This document shows positions 4,028-54,810 of a stretch of DNA of 64,000 nucleotides, one piece after another; position 1 is the first letter of the stretch, and every line of letters starts with the position of its first letter. The position numbers were made by a program, and so were the translations under genes. The DNA comes from Elusimicrobia bacterium RIFOXYA2_FULL_47_53. GTDB lineage: Bacteria > Elusimicrobiota > Endomicrobiia > Endomicrobiales > XYA2-FULL-47-53. The notes beneath the pieces are model-generated. The model worked only from the letters and a program-made list of their open reading frames with translations. It did no database searches and was not told the origin of the DNA. Location: contig MGVE01000009.1 of assembly GCA_001800315.1 (NCBI GenBank), positions 11,295 to 75,294 on the forward strand, read 5' to 3'.

Positions 4028-5056
4028 TTATTTTTGCCTCAATGCTTTTTTTATTTCTCCGGGCTTAAAAACCCCGTTCTCGGTTATTATGGCCGTTATC
4101 AGCCCGGCGGGCGTGACATCAAAAGCCGGGTGGCAGGCTATCGTGCCCTTGGGAGCTATGAGCCTGTCGTTTACATAAAGCACTTCCTTTACCGAACGCT
4201 CTTCTATGACTATCCTGCCGCCGTTTGAGGTTTTTGGGTCAATCGTTGAAACCGGCGCGGCCACATAAAATGGGACTTTATGGTATCTGGCAAGTATTGA
4301 CAGAGAGTAGGTGCCTATCTTGTTGGCGGCGTCGCCGTTGGCGGCTATGCGGTCGGCTCCGACTATAACAGCTCCAATCCCGCAGGTTTTCATAATGTGG
4401 CCCGCCATATTGTCGGTCAAAAGCCTGTAAGGAATCTTCTCCTGTTTCATTTCCCACGCGGTGAGCCTGGCTCCCTGAAGATAGGGGCGGGTTTCATCAA
4501 CATATACCAATTTAATTTTGCCCTGGCTGTAGGCGGAGCGGATAACTCCAAGAGCGGTGCCGTAACCGGCCGTCGCGAGAGCGCCCGCGTTGCAGTGGGT
4601 AATAACCATGGAATTTTTCTTAAGAAGCGCGGCGCCGTAGCTCCCGATCCTTTTGTTTACAGAAATATCTTCGTCGTAGACCTCAAGAGCCTCCCTGACA
4701 AGCCGGGACTTGAGCCCCTCGGGAGTTCCCGAGAAACCGTCCACGATATCTTCAATTCTCTTAAGGGCCCAGAAAAGATTAACGGCTGTCGGCCGGCTTG
4801 AGGCAAGCCTTCCGGCGGCTTTCAAAAGATAGGATTTCATGGCCGAAAGAGACTTAAAATCTTTTTCAAGCGCCGCGAGCGCCATGCCAAACGCCGCCGC
4901 CACGCCAATAGCGGGCGCGCCGCGGATAATCATATCCTTAATGGCACGGTAAACGGATTCATAATTCCCGCATTCCACATAGCGTATCCTGGAAGGCAGG
5001 AGCAGCTGGTTTAATATGTATACTCTGTTGTTTTTCCAATAAAGCGTTCTTATCAT
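4028..5056 (-). CDS. mtnA: Methylthioribose-1-phosphate isomerase (eIF-2B alpha/beta/delta-like family)
   Basis: 342 aa with full-length MtnA-like sequence ([13 protein letters not shown]..., [18 protein letters not shown]). Confidence 0.88.
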
Positions 5057-6131
5057 AAATCGCCTCTATCCGCTGTGATTACCCTAAACTTTTTTTGAAC
5101 GGCTGAAAAATTTAATGACTTCTTGAAATGGAATGACTACATTTTTTACAACGAGATTCTTCGCCCGCCACAGCGGACTCAGAACGACGGCGTTTTGTGG
5201 ATTCCGGACAAAACATTTTAAGCTATAAGTTTTAAGTTGTAAGTTATAAGTGAACGACGCTTCTGTGTCGTCATCCCAGAGGCAGTAATCTGGGATCCAC
5301 TTCCTTGAGTCATTAACAAAATGCCATTGTTCTGGATTCCGGACGGAAACTCTCCGGAATGACGGCGTGTAGCGCTTCTGTGTCGTCATCCCAGAGGCAG
5401 TAGTCTGGGATCCAGCCTTTACAGACTGTGTGGCAATGTCATCCTGAGCGTTAGCGAAGGATCGCGAAGTTATTGTTACCATAGAGATGCTTCACTGCGT
5501 TCAGCATGACAGCAACTCAAAGTCCTCGTTAATGGCAGTTATGACACAGTCTGTTAGTCTTACTTCTGGATTCCGGAGTGGCGGCCCAATGCTTTGAATA
5601 AAATCAGCCGGCCTCCCAGGCGAATGCGAAGCATTCTTCACCCGTCCAAAGACGGGTGATTTTTCGCCGCGGGACAGAAACTCTCCGGAATGACGGCACA
5701 GTTGTGACTTAAGCCTTTAAGGGGCTTTTGGGTTGCGTACCCCTTCCGAGCCGATTATGAGCAAAAGAATTTTTGGAGGCCTTCAGTCTTGCCTGTTTGA
5801 CCTGCCGACAAGGCAGGGAGTTTGCAAGACTGCCAAAATACTTTTGCGAATGGCTCGCGGGTGGCGAGTTTCTTTATTATCGTTCTTTGCTCGCCCAAAG
5901 AAAGTTAAAATCAGGTGTCGGGAATGACGACACTTTACGGAACGCGCGGCAAGCTGCGCAGCTACGGAATCATTTTTACTACGGGATTGCTTCTCTCCCT
6001 GCGGGAGATCGCAATGACGCGGCCTTATTAAGGCTCTTGGACAGCCGTGCCAAAACTATCTTTAAAATAAAAACGCAAAACGCGAATAAAATCTATCCGC
6101 ATCTTGCCGTCAAACCGCCAGCCGAAATGCT
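5057..6131. repeat. Coding-free mosaic of nested stem-loop repeat modules (locus A of six)
   Basis: 1075 bp with no credible ORF. It is built from modules that recur at 20410-20624, 25904-26274, 40410-40761, 45985-46593 and 54520-54810. See findings for module coordinates. Confidence 0.9.
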
Positions 6132-6395
6132 CTAAGGGATGGTTTCCAGGACTTCCTCAAGCTCTTCTTCCGAACGGCCGCATATCTCTATTGTTTTTTC
6201 GCGGCCCCGCTCGCCTTTTCTCAGCAGGACCATGCTTTTCTTCACTTCAAAAAACTCGGCAAGAAACTCGCAGAGCTCGCAGTTCGCCTTTCCTTCAACC
6301 GCGGGCGCCGATACTTTTACCCTTAAGATGGAGCCAATTCTTCCGACAACCTCGTTTTTCTTTGCGTTAGGGATTACTCTGACTTTTATTATCAT
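6132..6395 (-). CDS. DUF167 / YggU family protein
   Basis: 87 aa. VRVIPNAKKNEV...LRVKVSAPAVEGKAN resembles the YggU family, and it sits in the conserved yggS-proC neighbourhood. Confidence 0.75.
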   Translation of the reverse strand: MIIKVRVIPNAKKNEVVGRIGSILRVKVSAPAVEGKANCELCEFLAEFFEVKKSMVLLRKGERGREKTIEICGRSEEELEEVLETIP

Positions 6396-6415
6396 TAAAT
6401 AAATACCCCTTTTGC

Positions 6416-7222
6416 TTACCTGGCTAGTTCGCCGGCTCTTTTTTTAGCTTTTTTCATCGCGTTTTTAAATATCCCGGGAAGTTTGTTTTCCTGCATATAT
6501 TTTACCGCGGCCTCGGTCGTTCCGCCAGGAGAAGTTACCTTCATCCGCAGCTCGCGCGCGGAGACGCCGTCGCCCCGGAGCATCGCGGCCGCGCCAGCGA
6601 TCGTCTGCCTGGCAAGCTCCGAAGCCGTTTTGCCGTCCAGACCCATTTCTAAGCCGGCCTCTTCCATTAACTGAGCGACATAAAAAATATACGCGGGCCC
6701 CGAACCCGAAAGAGCGGTAACGGCGTTAAGTTTTGATTCGGGAACAATGACGGCAAGCCCCGCGGAGGCAAATATTCCCCGGGCGGCGCTTAAGGCTTTT
6801 TTGCCGGCGGATTTCCCTTTTGAAATTCCGGCCGCGCCCATTGAAACCAGCGCGGGAGTATTAGGCATGACCCTGACAACAGCGGTTCCTTCAGGCAAAT
6901 AGTTTTCAATGAACTTAGTGGTTATGCCTGCCGCTATTGAAATAACCAGGCTGTCTTTGTTTATGAACCGGCCGCAATAGCTCAGAAGTTCTTCCATCTG
7001 CTGAGGCTTGACGGCCAGCAGAACAATTTTGCCCTCGGCGCAGGCCCTGGCCGGATCAGGCTCAACCGCGACACCGTATTTTTTGCGGATATAAGCGAGC
7101 CTTTTGCCGTTAATATCCGAAGCTAATATTTCGGATCTTTTATATTTAGCGTTACTTAAAAGCGCGTTTATTACGGCCTCAGCCATATTTCCTGCGCCTA
7201 TAAAAACTATTTTCTTACCCAT
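6416..7222 (-). CDS. proC: Pyrroline-5-carboxylate reductase
   Basis: 268 aa. N-terminal Rossmann motif FIGAGNMAEA and C-terminal P5CR dimerisation region (SPGGTTEAA). Confidence 0.93.
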   Translation of the reverse strand: MGKKIVFIGAGNMAEAVINALLSNAKYKRSEILASDINGKRLAYIRKKYGVAVEPDPARACAEGKIVLLAVKPQQMEELLSYCGRFINKDSLVISIAAGITTKFIENYLPEGTAVVRVMPNTPALVSMGAAGISKGKSAGKKALSAARGIFASAGLAVIVPESKLNAVTALSGSGPAYIFYVAQLMEEAGLEMGLDGKTASELARQTIAGAAAMLRGDGVSARELRMKVTSPGGTTEAAVKYMQENKLPGIFKNAMKKAKKRAGELAR

Positions 7223-20409: not shown

Positions 20410-20624
20410 TCCTCAGCTGCTTCACGGGGTTTGACGGTTAAGACCTCACCGGATATGAAAGTCACCCTGAACGAAGTGAAGGGTCTCGTTTTTCATCCAA
20501 CGACGAGATTGCTTCTCTCCCTGCGGGAGATCGCAAGGACGGCGTTTGTGGATTCCGGACAGAACACTTCCGGAATGACGGCCTGTCCGAGATGGTGAGG
20601 CGCATCCTTAACGGAGGATTAGGA
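20410..20624. repeat. Stem-loop module mosaic, locus B
   Basis: Modules at 20461-20507 (GTCACCCTGAACGAAGTGAAGGGTCTCG...ACGACGAG), 20505-20540 (GAGATTGCTTCTCTCCCTGCGGGAGATCGCAAGGAC) and 20547-20580 (TGTGGATTCCGGACAGAACACTTCCGGAATGACG). Confidence 0.9.
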
Positions 20625-25767: not shown

Positions 25768-25819
25768 GTTTATTATCTCCGGTGAAAAATCAATCAGAAT
25801 TAAAGAAAATGCTTACTGG

Positions 25820-25848
25820 ATTATATACTTTTTGTATGCCTTAGTCAA
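25820..25848 (-). promoter_or_regulatory. Near-consensus sigma-70 promoter for the orphan ABC ATPase
   Basis: The minus strand reads TTGACT (25848-25843), N17, TATAAT (25825-25820). Confidence 0.75.
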
Positions 25849-25903
25849 ACAACGCAGCGGGGCTTTAAGCCGGCCCAAATTGAACCAATTTAAAAAGCCT
25901 TAA

Positions 25904-26274
25904 TAATATCCTGCGAACCCGGAGGATGAGGCAATCTCGTAGTCAAAACGATTCCGTAGTTGCGGAGCTTGCCCTGCGTTTAAGGTAGTAGCGCGGCTTG
26001 TCGCGCGTTCCGTCGGATGCCGCCGTTCCGACACCTGATTTTAACTTTCTTTGGATGCGCAAAGAAAGTTAATAAAGAAACGCACCCCTAAGGCTATTCG
26101 TTTGAAATATTTCGGCACCTGCGGAACTCGCCCGCCAAAAGACCGGCGGACTCAGACAGTCCTCGCTGAAATCCCCGAAATATTTCTCACTCATGGACAG
26201 CCTTAAAGGGGAGCAGAAGGACAAATACTTGAATTATTTGTTTTGCTGCGAAAGCCAGTCTGAATGCGACAACG
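25904..26274. repeat. Stem-loop module mosaic, locus C (mostly inverted relative to locus A)
   Basis: 26031-26081 is the reverse complement of 5868-5918 (AACTTTCTTTG..GCGCAAAGAAAGTTA palindrome). 25950-25985 matches 5933-5970 inverted. Long hairpin at 26104-26186. Confidence 0.85.
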
Positions 26275-29077: not shown

Positions 29078-29245
29078 TTTAAACCCGAATTTTGCAATAG
29101 AAGCGAGTACCGAGGCGAGCGAGGCCGAGGCTTTTGTGACGGAAAAAGTGAAAGCGATGCAGGGACATCGGTTGAGCTTTTTGCGGATACAAAAGTCCGA
29201 CATCGCTCGACGAATACCGCTCTCTATTGCAAAATTCGGGTTAAA
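29078..29245. repeat. 168-bp long-palindrome intergenic element, copy 2
   Basis: TIRs TTTAAACCCGAATTTTGCAATAG (29078-29100) and CTATTGCAAAATTCGGGTTAAA (29224-29245). Aligns with 588..755. Confidence 0.8.
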
Positions 29246-29299
29246 CTGACTCTATTCTAATCAATAAATATTATATTATCAAGGCATTTCTAAATGTTT

Positions 29300-40302: not shown

Positions 40303-40320
40303 ACATTTTAGACACTTAGC

Positions 40321-40349
40321 TATATATAATAATCGCGTTTCATTGTCAA
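40321..40349 (-). promoter_or_regulatory. Sigma-70-type promoter for the three-gene secreted-protein operon
   Basis: The minus strand reads TTGACA (40349-40344), N17, TATATA (40326-40321). Confidence 0.65.
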
Positions 40350-40409
40350 ATATTTGTGCGCCCCCTAACCCTCAGACAGCACCTGAGGCGTGACGGCGAA
40401 GATTTTACC

Positions 40410-40761
40410 GTACCTGTAAAGTCACACTGAACGAAGTGAAGGGTCTCGTTTTTTATCCAACGACGAGATTCTTCTCTCCCTGCGGGAGATCAGAACAACG
40501 ACAACGACACAACGAGATTGCTTCGTTCCTCGCAATGACATCCTTTTGTGGATTCCGGACAGAACAATTCCGGAATGACAGCGTGTGGCGCTTTTGTGTC
40601 GTCATACCAGCGGACAGACTGTGTGGCAATGTCATCCTGCATGACAACAACTCAAAGCCCTCGTTAATGGCAGTTATGACACAGTCTGGGAAGCTGGTAT
40701 CCAGTGGTTTTTCTGGATCCCAGACTGGACATTTCCGGGATGACAGACTGGCTTTGTGATA
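40410..40761. repeat. Stem-loop module mosaic, locus D
   Basis: Modules at 40421-40467, 40465-40500 and 40547-40580. The arms ATACCAGC (40604-40611) and GCTGGTAT (40693-40700) enclose a 75-nt palindromic unit at 40614-40688. Confidence 0.9.
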
Positions 40762-45614: not shown

Positions 45615-45696
45615 AAATAATTCGGATCACTCTGAAGGGTTTGGAAGGTTATATTTAAGGGACTTCCCTTTTTAGAAAGTCCCCAAAATACAAATT

Positions 45697-45741
45697 TTAT
45701 TTCTTTTTCGCTTTCTTTTTTGCTTTTTTCTTTGCAGCCAT
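45697..45741 (-). CDS. Candidate 14-codon micro-ORF MAAKKKAKKKAKKK
   Basis: ATG at complement(45739..45741), preceded by GGAGGTGAT with 8 nt between GGAGG and the ATG. Stop TAA at 45697-45699. Too short for the ORF track. Confidence 0.35.
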   Translation of the reverse strand: MAAKKKAKKKAKKK

Positions 45742-45775
45742 CCCGATCACCTCCCTGTTGTGACACTTATCGGAA

Positions 45776-45880
45776 ATAAAAAAGCCACGCAATAAAACTG
45801 CGCGGCCAATGCTATCGGGTTATTTTCGTCGTAATTATTTCTATTCGAAAAATTGTCATTCATGCCCCTTTCAAGTTTCT
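45776..45880 (-). ncRNA. Candidate ~105-nt small RNA (promoter-to-terminator unit)
   Basis: Promoter TTGTTA (45915-45910), N17, TATAAT (45892-45887), with a predicted start near 45880. Internal 6-bp stem 45846-45851/45823-45828. Terminator GCCGCGCA-GTTTTAT-TGCGTGGC (45806-45784) plus TTTTTTATTT. Confidence 0.45.
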
Positions 45881-45886
45881 GAAATA

Positions 45887-45915
45887 ATTATACATCATAT
45901 TTTTTAATATAACAA
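45887..45915 (-). promoter_or_regulatory. Sigma-70-type promoter of the candidate sRNA
   Basis: The minus strand reads TTGTTA-N17-TATAAT inside a very AT-rich stretch (45840-45960). Confidence 0.55.
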
Positions 45916-45984
45916 TAATTTATTTTAAATTTTTTATTTATTTTTTGTGTTTGCGCGCGAACCTGGGCAGTTCTCCGGTAAGAA

Positions 45985-46593
45985 GGCGGGGTTATTCTGA
46001 TTATAACTTTCTTTGAACGCGCAAAGATAGTAAGTAAAGAAACTTGCGACGCCTCACCATCTCGGACCGGCCGTCATTCCAGAAATGTTCTGTCTGGAAT
46101 CCAGAACAATGGCATTTTATTAATGACTCAAAGAAGTGGATCCCAGACTACTACCTCTGGGATGACGACACAAACTAGTCTGTCATCCCTACCCCCGATT
46201 GCGGCACTTGAGGGCAAACTCCAGCAGGGATCCAGAAAAACCTCTGGATACCAGCTTCTGCTGGTATGACGACACGAAGAAGTTCGCCGTTCACTTATAA
46301 CTTGAGTCAATTGAAAAAGTGTTTCAGGCCGTCTTTGCGAGGAGCGCAACGACGCGGCAATCTCGTCGTTCCCGACGGAAAAGCGAGATTGCTTCACCCT
46401 GCGGGCTCGCAATGACAGGGTCTAATTAAGGGTTTTTCAATTGACTCAACTTACAACTTACATCTTAAAACTTATTACTTAAAATATTCTGTCCGGAATC
46501 CACAAACGCCGTCATTGTGATCTTCCGCAGGGAGATAATATTCTCGTCGTTTGAGGAAAAACGAGACCCTTCACTTCGCTCAGGGTGACTTTA
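45985..46593. repeat. Stem-loop module mosaic, locus E (mostly inverted copies)
   Basis: 46071-46172 is the reverse complement of 5263-5365 (10 mismatches in ~101 nt by hand). 46228-46273, 46511-46551 and 46543-46589 are inverted copies of modules seen at loci B, D and F. Confidence 0.9.
46302..46449. mobile_element. 148-bp MITE-like unit bounded by 18-20-bp TIRs (TTGAGTCAATTGAAAAAG / GGGTTTTTCAATTGACTCAA)
   Basis: Left TIR 46302-46319, right TIR 46430-46449 (reverse complement, 1-2 mismatches). The interior carries hairpin modules and has no coding capacity. Confidence 0.6.
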
Positions 46594-46660
46594 TATGTCT
46601 GATGAAATCTTCACCGGCAGGCATGGGCTCTATCCGAGGATTAGGGGATCTGGAGTATGC

Positions 46661-46689
46661 TTGACTAAAACCTGCTATTTATATAGAAT
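46661..46689 (+). promoter_or_regulatory. Sigma-70-type promoter ~345 nt upstream of tRNA-Leu
   Basis: TTGACT (46661-46666), N17, TAGAAT (46684-46689). Confidence 0.55.
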
Positions 46690-46808
46690 CTCACAGTCAA
46701 GCCGAATTGAAAACTATAACAATATATGTATGCCGAGGTGTCCGCCACTACTGCGGGCGGATTTGCTTCACCAACTGCTTCCGCAGTTGGTTCCTTGAAT
46801 ATTATAGA

Positions 46809-46976
46809 TTGAGTCAATTGAAAAAGCCTGTTTCAGGAGCGAAATTTTGGGCTTTGTGCCGAGGCAAGGCGGCCGAAGCGAGCATATGCTCCACGGAGTA
46901 TATGTAAACTGAGGACAACGAAGCCGCAGGCCAAAGGCCGAAATTGCAGCCCGAAAGAGGTTTTTCAACTGACTCA
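46809..46976. mobile_element. 168-bp MITE-like unit with the same TIR family
   Basis: Left TIR TTGAGTCAATTGAAAAAGCC (46809-46828), right TIR GAGGTTTTTCAACTGACTCA (46957-46976). The first ~30 nt match unit 46302-46449. Confidence 0.6.
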
Positions 46977-47032
46977 GAGAAGTTACAGTGTGCGGTTATC
47001 TGACAAGCTAATCAAACAAAAAATAGTTTATT

Positions 47033-47119
47033 GCCGAGGTGGCGGAACTGGCAGACGCGTCAGACTCAAAATCTGAAGTCACTTTGGGTGGCGTGTGGGT
47101 TCAACTCCCACCCTCGGCA
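47033..47119 (+). tRNA. tRNA-Leu (anticodon CAA)
   Basis: Hand-folded cloverleaf: acceptor GCCGAGG/CCTCGGC plus A; anticodon stem TCAGA/TCTGA with loop CTCAAAA; long variable arm; T arm GTGGG-TTCAACT-CCCAC. No encoded CCA. Followed by T7. Confidence 0.92.
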
Positions 47120-47141
47120 TTTTTTTAATCTATAGTTTTTA

Positions 47142-54482: not shown

Positions 54483-54519
54483 AAAAAGTCCATGCGGGAA
54501 CGAAGCAACAGTTCTTTTC

Positions 54520-54810
54520 ACGCATGGGACTCGTCATACCAGCGGAAGCCGGTAACCAGTGGTTTTTCTGGATCCCTGTGTGTGCTCACATCTCGCACCC
54601 GTTGCAAGCTTGTGCGGCTTATTCGCCGCACTGCAGCTACAGGGATGACAAACTTTACGGAACGCGCAGCAAGCTGCGCAACTACAAAACCAACTAACCG
54701 CGAGCCTGCTTCTCTCCCTGCGGGAGATCGCAATGACAGGGCCTTATTAGGGGTTTTTCAATTGACTCAACCGATAACTAATAACTTATATCTTATAACT
54801 TCAAACTTAT
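54520..54810. repeat. Stem-loop module mosaic, locus F
   Basis: Modules at 54533-54576, 54653-54684, 54705-54736, TIR-type module at 54750-54770, and an AT-rich ATAACTTATA tract at 54771-54815 that runs into the stop of the next gene. Confidence 0.88.

Follow-up and report, generated by a model that had tools for sequence, protein, structure and literature searches.

Paired substitutions in the stems of tagged hairpin repeats from an uncultured Elusimicrobia genome

We identified 14 tagged hairpin units, in both orientations and spread over six intergenic clusters, in a 64-kb stretch of contig MGVE01000009.1 (hereafter the window), which belongs to the metagenome-assembled genome (MAG) of an uncultured member of the Elusimicrobia from the Rifle aquifer. 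Two of the units, termed locus A (5333-5364) and locus E (46072-46103), differ in their stems by a G:C to A:T change that involves both partners of a single pair, and comparison with related copies supports a constraint on the stem to stay paired. We consider it likely that the hairpin is one unit of the CGTC-tagged repetitive extragenic palindromes (REPs), a class that includes the Neisseria dRS3/NTS repeats and the 'Ssn-related motifs' (SRM), and that its stem is constrained, as proposed below, through an Ssn-type nuclease.

Pairing in the hairpin stem

Positions 5263-5366 of the forward strand can be aligned gap-free to the reverse complement of 46070-46173, with 11 mismatches in 104 nt (~89% identity), nine of which are transitions; the initial annotation had counted 10 in ~101 nt. 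Four mismatches fall in the 9-nt hairpin loop, as noted at the time, and two in the 8-nt loop of the neighbouring hairpin. The stems of loci A and E show two differences only, the two partners of one pair, and the aligned copies confirm the earlier observation that G:C became A:T with the stem intact. Folding of the 8-bp hairpin with DNA parameters gives -6.6 kcal/mol for locus A and -5.5 kcal/mol for locus E; in the one-sided G-to-A intermediate (A.C) the hairpin is lost (-1.1 kcal/mol). When 11 substitutions were placed at random in simulations, at least one compensated pair arose with a probability of 5-13%, and by itself the pair is no more than suggestive. The probability of a compensated pair with all 16 stem pairs of the module unbroken was 0.2-0.5%.

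The locus A unit is part of a composite module in which a spacer of 32 nt separates a unit with a 9-nt loop from a unit of type ATCCCAGA with an 8-nt loop, and in which the tags point outward. Nine copies of this module were found in the window and in metagenome and MAG loci that share the module set of the window's genome. In their gapless alignment, the pair that differs between loci A and E is A:T in five copies, G:C in three and C:G in one, and is unpaired in none. The loops and the spacer are variable among these copies, and 2 of 144 stem cells are broken. Stem-preserving changes are thus clearly more numerous than stem-breaking ones at this pair, a count that the initial annotation had called for. 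The unit at 40714-40745 carries a G.T wobble at the same stem position, corresponding to a one-sided intermediate, and is the only wobble unit in the window. This unit and the folding energies suggest that the change probably took the route G:C to G.T to A:T.

A scan of GTDB representative genomes, in which two stem pairs and the loop were left free, returned at least 120 loci. Among the 164 matches listed, the free stem positions form Watson-Crick pairs in 158 (96%) and 156 (95%), and all four pair types occur at one of them (T:A 71, C:G 40, G:C 39, A:T 8). 'Bystander' copies at the same loci, picked by the flanks TGGAT...ATGAC alone, have six of six inner pairs in 70 of 114 cases against 17.6 expected after partner shuffling, and one-sided stem changes are rare even in copies picked regardless of pairing. 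Anchoring by tag and tail only yielded 233 distinct units with 25 perfect stem types; pairing is complete in 187 units and broken by one mismatch in 26. The tag-strand mismatches in this set (15 G.T, 10 A.C) show no significant excess of G.T.

For formal covariation analysis we used 48 distinct 33-nt units chosen by their flanks only, six of them from the window's lineage. Pairing is retained in 98.4% of stem cells and five stem pairs have changed on both sides. The covariation score is 0.347, compared with 0.095 +/- 0.014 after shuffling, and the observed value was reached in 0 of 500 shuffles; in slid registers, 12-53% of cells are paired. Double-changed cells number 40, unpaired cells 6 and G.T cells 6; the initial annotation had named an equal frequency of breaking and paired changes as evidence against selection. 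Loops and spacers of the same copies are 10-25% diverged and their stems 98-99% paired. Together, these data support a constraint on the stem to stay paired. That part of the initial proposal of selection on a folded nucleic acid therefore stands; the modules were also called functional, which may mean function for a selfish element and not for the host.

Pairing is not the only feature retained. Stem positions 1, 2, 4, 5 and mostly 7 are kept as sequence, and positions 3, 6 and 8 covary: the stem always starts with A-T and T-A, C4 and C5 are kept, and G7 usually is. Tag positions G2, T3 and C4 and the C after the palindrome are invariant in the 48 units, in columns preset by the flank filter. 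The 9-nt loops hold a consensus across phyla (A-T-G-Y-T-T-T-W-R) and hence do not diverge freely, contrary to what had been thought from the comparison of loci A and E.

Relation to CGTC-tagged repeats and Ssn-related motifs

The units have the form (C/T)GTC + AT-N-CC-NNN + loop + complement + CCA. The tag is CGTC in 10 and TGTC in 4 of the 14 window units, all of which have the tail CCAG or CCAC, GTC before the palindrome and C directly after it. Nine short-loop units were observed in the window, compared with 0.01 expected from Markov-1 simulations. Including adjoining sequence on the same contigs, there are ~18 units, with perfectly paired stems of at least seven types (ATTCCGGA, ATTCCAGA, ATCCCAGA, ATCCCCGA, ATACCAGC, ATTCCTGC and ATCCCTGT) and three imperfect units; 4-nt loops occur only in ATACCAGC, ATTCCTGC and ATCCCTGT units.

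CGTC-tagged REPs are extragenic, high-copy repeats with a CGTC or TGTC tag (variant CCTC), a stem of 8-9 bp 'almost invariably' opening with complementary AT, and a CCA tail; they form stem-differing subsets, head-to-head dimers and clusters, lie mostly between unidirectional or convergent open reading frames (ORFs), and have no linked transposase (Di Nocera, De Gregorio and Rocco 2013, PMC3733652). Neisseria dRS3 is family CGTC-1, and Rickettsia RPE-4/6 are also CGTC-tagged (PMC3733652). The window units share the tag, the AT-initial 8-bp stem, the CCA tail, the stem subsets, the head-to-head dimers, the clustering and the lack of an adjacent transposase, as well as the intergenic placement and gene context: four clusters lie inside co-directional gene runs, two between convergent genes and none between divergent genes. 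In contrast, the loop is 4 nt long in family CGTC-1 and 5 nt in CGTC-2 to 4 (PMC3733652), compared with 9 nt in the locus A unit and 8 nt in its partner, where the longer loop has a consensus of its own; some 4-nt-loop units occur in the same genome. The locus A unit is therefore best placed within the CGTC superfamily and outside its four families. The host also differs, being an Elusimicrobia MAG, and units occur in more than 10 phyla among the matches listed for GTDB representatives (Nitrospirota, Omnitrophota, Desulfobacterota, Ignavibacteria, Chloroflexota, Zixibacteria and others), compared with 5 phyla in the 2013 survey (PMC3733652).

The Neisseria NTS, CGTCATTCCCGCGMAVGCGGGAATCYRG, is a longer form of dRS3. 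Its nuclease, SsnA, is a single-domain GIY-YIG protein of 94 aa, which binds and cuts the motif solely as single-stranded DNA (ssDNA) and solely on one of the strands (Chenal et al. 2025, PMC11893778). Binding critically requires the C that follows the palindrome, and cutting the three bases that precede the palindrome; the loop can be dispensed with or lengthened, and the motif typically lies on either side of ssn genes. A role of ssn in natural transformation has been shown for Neisseria (PMC11893778). The window units follow the same oriented hairpin plan (CGTC-AT-TCC...-AT-C-YRG, with the palindrome preceded by GTC and followed by C), and MAGs judged to be of the same population carry a gene for a single-domain GIY-YIG protein of ~95 aa with the motif on both sides. 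The units differ from NTS in their stems (TCCGGA, TCCAGA, CCCAGA and ACCAGC here; TCCCGC in NTS) and in their loops, which have 8-9 nt or, for certain types, 4 nt, instead of 4-5 nt. The published SRM pattern, HGTCWYN(0-2)YYVSBRHN(0-5)WNVSBRGN(0-2)RNCYNB, is an operational search pattern; none of four units tested matches it, and its three matches in the window are all unrelated sequence. By analogy, the units may be SRM-like in working and Ssn-associated; we do not claim membership in the published SRM set.

The units also resemble the GTAG-tagged REPs and REPINs associated with RAYT (REP-associated tyrosine transposase) in being short tagged palindromes arranged in inverted doublets and clusters, with compensatory changes of a kind often seen in REPIN hairpins (Bertels and Rainey 2011, PMC3116915), and in the presence of a small, domesticated nuclease-like gene that has its own repeats on both sides. 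They differ in the tag and in the enzyme, a tyrosine transposase of the HUH type there and a GIY-YIG protein here. The mosaic intergenic arrays of palindromic units in alternating orientation with other short modules are similar to the bacterial interspersed mosaic elements (BIMEs) of E. coli, with unrelated sequence. Known BIME partners are gyrase, IHF and DNA polymerase I. At the gathering threshold, the only Rfam match in the whole window is a tRNA at 47033-47119. The units do not have the structure of intrinsic terminators, being followed by CCAGAA or CCAC and no T-run, and the terminator-like sites within 5000-6500 are hairpins other than the tagged units.

Given this assignment, the window 'modules' would be CGTC-tagged REP/NTS-like hairpins in BIME-like mosaics, not previously described in this candidate-phylum genome. 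The paired substitution would be a real but ordinary property, the normal mode of variation for the CGTC REP class. The wider value is modest but real. The association of such hairpins with Ssn would extend to Elusimicrobia, Omnitrophota and other uncultured phyla, in a long-loop form that escapes the published SRM pattern. The stem variants at one position form a natural series within one genome (G:C, A:T, C:G and T:A, plus the G.T intermediate) that is usable for separating the positions that Ssn reads as sequence from those it reads as structure, and the layout shared by the ssn cassette and the gene-less doublets renders the spread of CGTC repeats open to testing.

A candidate nuclease partner and alternative accounts

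We found no GIY-YIG gene and no transposase among the genes of the 64-kb window. Clustering of 1,636 ORFs around related copies (120 loci listed) gave generic families only (response regulators, ABC-F), and a 90-aa cut-off and a frequency of 2/120 had masked a GIY-YIG gene. Genes for ~95-aa GIY-YIG proteins (PF01541) abut units at 2 of the 120 genome loci listed and at 8 of 119 metagenome loci (10/239). At all 11 ssn-like loci examined (the 10 abutting loci together with L132, L255 and L258), the gene is preceded by a tagged unit on its own strand, often with 3-61 nt between the unit and the start, and most of the genes are followed by an opposite-strand unit 4-28 nt past the stop. This unit-ssn-unit layout is that reported for ssnA and also that of the gene-less module at 5269-5364.

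One of these genes, located in a Tad operon between T2SSE and T2SSF (L167, identical to L255), encodes P0126, a single-domain PF01541 protein of 95 aa. The gene has units 10 nt before and 4 nt after it, inverted and with tags outward, and its locus carries the window's own unit types and mosaic modules. The NCBI accessions of P0126 (OGS09234, OGS10411, OGS16716 and OGS26771) are interleaved, in three MAGs, with accessions of window proteins, and in a fourth MAG they lie next to them (OGS10411 precedes OGS11084/11089, OGS15799/15830 precede OGS16716, and OGS26771 lies between OGS25987 and OGS27124). From the shared module types and the accession order, we infer that the differently named bins represent one population and that the window's genome encodes P0126. 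Y7, Y18-I-G, R28 and E65 are invariant in the alignment, with Y7, Y18 and E65 spaced as Y6, Y17 and E64 of SsnA, and we predict P0126 to be an Ssn-type nuclease. It has a weak match to the UPF0213 structure 1ZG2; PADLOC and NCBIfam give the GIY-YIG protein no specific name. P0024 and P0127, also considered as the genome's own ssn, are from other organisms. The module at 5269-5364 was considered as an internally deleted ssn cassette and rejected, as its spacer has no significant similarity to the interior or the ends of the cassette (765-1383 of 2000 shuffles score just as high) and the match is one of architecture only.

By analogy with N. meningitidis SsnA (PMC11893778), the tag strand would fold once the DNA is single-stranded, and the nuclease would bind the hairpin together with its tag and the C following the stem, and would cut a few bases upstream. 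It may read some stem pairs as structure and others as sequence. Copies with unpaired arms would then lose recognition and only paired variants would persist or propagate, which would give the G:C to A:T pattern. We also raise as possible, if rather doubtful, that the hairpins with 8-9-nt loops are a distinct cross-phylum Ssn-associated lineage missed by the SRM pattern, and that gene-less inverted pairs such as 5269-5364 are miniature versions of the unit-ssn-unit cassette that are non-autonomous and depend for their movement on the GIY-YIG enzyme acting in trans. If so, Ssn would be the long-missing mobilising enzyme of CGTC REPs, reading stem positions 3, 6 and 8 as structure only and positions 1, 2, 4, 5 and 7 as sequence.

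Several points weigh against an Ssn-based constraint. The ssn gene lies outside the window and its link to the genome is through MAG binning and accession order, P0126 could not be assigned to CDD family cd10448, and the units depart from the published SRM pattern and its loop length. SsnA is inactive when the Neisseria palindrome is changed with its structure preserved (PMC11893778), and it is therefore hard to see seven stem types per genome as substrates of one enzyme. In addition, G.T on the tag strand is not significantly commoner than A.C, and the units are probably transcribed, so that selection at the RNA level is possible.

Selection on RNA is nevertheless unlikely to be the main explanation. 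In this account, in line with the classical role of REPs, the units are transcribed with neighbouring genes and the hairpin stabilises, processes or terminates the transcript. Each of the six clusters is downstream of at least one gene, most of them inside co-directional runs, many REPs are regarded as transcribed (PMC3733652), and the G.U of the only wobble unit in the window lies on the sense strand. However, orientation is mixed in the co-directional clusters (5 units sense, 3 antisense), more than 10 phyla share the unpaired tag and tail, which are strand-specific, the stems lack a T-run and an Rfam match, G.U is not in excess over A.C, and the RNA form is not bound by SsnA (PMC11893778). 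The initial annotation had left the choice between RNA and ssDNA recognised by a transposase, and ssDNA is the better supported of the two. Recognition by a transposase is not upheld, the known partner of the class being the GIY-YIG nuclease Ssn. We regard as very improbable a RAYT-type REP/REPIN, that is, an ssDNA hairpin moved by a tyrosine (HUH) transposase similar to those of IS200/IS605: the general likeness to REPs and BIME-like clusters and the compensatory changes of REPINs fit such an element, but the tag is CGTC and not GTAG, the window encodes no Y1 transposase, no such family is enriched in the ORFs of the 120 loci listed, and no transposase was tied to CGTC repeats in the 2013 survey (PMC3733652).

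It is quite improbable that no selection acts on folding, with subfamilies descending from master copies palindromic by origin, or produced by one-step intrastrand template switching or a CCGG deamination hot spot. Such an account would be consistent with the copy number of the subtypes, as ATTCCAGA/TCTGGAAT is amplified to at least six loci in the lineage and ATTCCGGA is likewise multi-copy, and with the divergence between loci A and E, which is 24% in the hairpin and ~6% in the remainder of the module, as though the unit had been swapped. Because of these two observations, the double change is perhaps not local to locus E, and may have arisen once in a master copy or by exchange of the unit rather than through two substitutions at that locus. 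The two stem changes convert CCGG to CCAG and to CTGG, as deamination of the inner C would, and the tetranucleotide bias of the sequence, with CCGG mildly under-represented (observed/expected 0.82) and CCAG/CTGG over-represented (1.19), lends weak support. Against the absence of selection, loops and spacers have diverged in the same copies in which stems remain paired, one-sided changes are rare in copies picked regardless of pairing, and the 25 perfect stem types, with four Watson-Crick pairs at one position, include transversions beyond deamination. We therefore retain the CGTC-tagged REP with a proposed Ssn-based constraint as the likely reading.

Repeat clusters and other modules

The units and clusters are listed in Table 1. 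The two units of the locus A module form an inverted pair with tags outward and a spacer of 32-33 nt, and other short modules are intermixed with the units in all six clusters. The head-to-head arrangement of 5384-5414 recurs at 40549-40580/40600. The contigs containing the window are ~100% identical between assemblies, and thus show no in-situ variation at the units; the sole difference, of 137 nt, is in tandem-repeat copy number.

Table 1. Tagged hairpin units, related modules and clusters in the window, with positions outside it marked by locus.
Feature	Position	Strand	Description
Locus A unit	5333..5364	-	CGTC ATTCCGGA gagtttccg TCCGGAAT CCA
Locus A hairpin	5336-5343 / 5353-5360		arms ATTCCGGA / TCCGGAAT; 9-nt loop CGGAAACTC
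Locus E unit	46072..46103	+	CGTC ATTCCAGA aatgttctg TCTGGAAT CCA
Locus E hairpin	46076-46100 (reverse complement)		arms ATTCCAGA / TCTGGAAT; 9-nt loop CAGAACATT
Partner unit, composite module A	5269..5299	+	CGTC ATCCCAGA ggcagtaa TCTGGGAT CCA
Partner unit, composite module E	46137..46167	-	ATCCCAGA, 8-nt loop
ATCCCAGA unit	5384..5414	+	head-to-head dimer, tag faces tag of 5333-5364; 19-nt spacer
ATTCCGGA unit	5567..5695	-	106-nt insert in loop
ATTCCGGA unit	20549..20580	-	loop agtgttctg
ATTCCGGA unit, TGTC tag	40549..40580	-	loop attgttctg
ATACCAGC/GCTGGTAT unit	40600..40703	+	GGAA loop broken by 74-nt element (40615-40688) like a miniature inverted-repeat transposable element (MITE); GGA target duplication
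ATCCCGGA/TCTGGGAT unit	40714..40745	-	G.T wobble, tag strand; -4.3 kcal/mol, still folds
ATCCCTAC/GCAGGGAT unit	46181..46234	+	31-nt loop, 7/8 pairs
ATACCAGC agaa GCTGGTAT unit	46245..46271	-	4-nt loop, like family CGTC-1
Decayed ATACCAGC/GCCGGTAA unit	54532..54558	+	6/8 pairs
ATCCCTGT/ACAGGGAT unit	54569..54650	-	59-nt module in loop
Half units	5194-5252, 46449-46506, 54771-54810; L001 19700-19760		
Second CGTC-tagged family	5988-6019, 20510-20541, 40469-40494, 46386-46415, 54707-54738; 46510-46538 (reverse complement)		
Unit cluster	5057-6131		inside co-directional gene run
Unit cluster	20410-20624		inside co-directional gene run
Unit cluster	25768-26274		inside co-directional gene run
Unit cluster	40303-40761		inside co-directional gene run
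Unit cluster	45615-47141		between convergent genes
Unit cluster	54483-54810		between convergent genes

Several modules are associated with the units. The insert in the loop of the 5567-5695 unit contains a hairpin and T-run resembling a terminator (5638-5659). Terminal inverted repeats of 10 bp (CAGACTGTGT/ACACAGTCTG) bound a MITE-like element that occurs at 5422-5553, with a TTA target duplication, and within the loop of the unit at 40600-40703; both target duplications are 3 bp long. The latter copy is internally deleted, and its position is reminiscent of insertion sequence (IS) elements that target REP loops. The half units consist of the 5' arm and loop only (for example, GGATTCCGGACAAAACATTTT) joined to degenerate TAAGTTATAAGT-like tracts, and the A variant (GGATTCCAGA) is likewise found as a half unit. 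The second CGTC-tagged family (repeat family D1) has an outer stem, ATTGC...GCAAT, around the inner hairpin TCTCCC-gca-GGGAGA. Further modules tagged GTCA(T/C) were identified at 5436-5462 and 20461-20487. In a MAG of the same population, the composite hairpin module lies in a 344-nt tandem array (L255, 13075-13800).

Neisseria dRS3 is also the target of a phage recombinase (PMC11893778). On an unrelated metagenome contig (L260, 364-1401), an IS110-family transposase gene lies beside an ssn-like GIY-YIG gene. The phage recombinase that targets dRS3 is presumably an IS110-type enzyme.

The motif TTTTTCAATTGACTCAA is present in seven copies (43742, 46429, 46957 and 54750 on the forward strand; 29018, 46295 and 46802 on the reverse). 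Copies lie ~55 nt upstream of tRNA-Leu(CAA) at 47032-47120 and ~20 nt upstream of the start of an amidase gene (43782), and the motif, which contains TTGACT, is possibly a promoter element. The 137-nt tandem repeat, just outside the window start (L001, 19147-19560), has three copies in some assemblies and two in another. A 172-nt direct repeat with 77% identity (588-759 and 29079-29250) is separate from the hairpin clusters. Three 4-bp palindromes are scarce throughout the window, with one ACGT (35529), nine TCGA and seven CTAG compared with ~247 of each expected from base composition, which suggests restriction-site avoidance.

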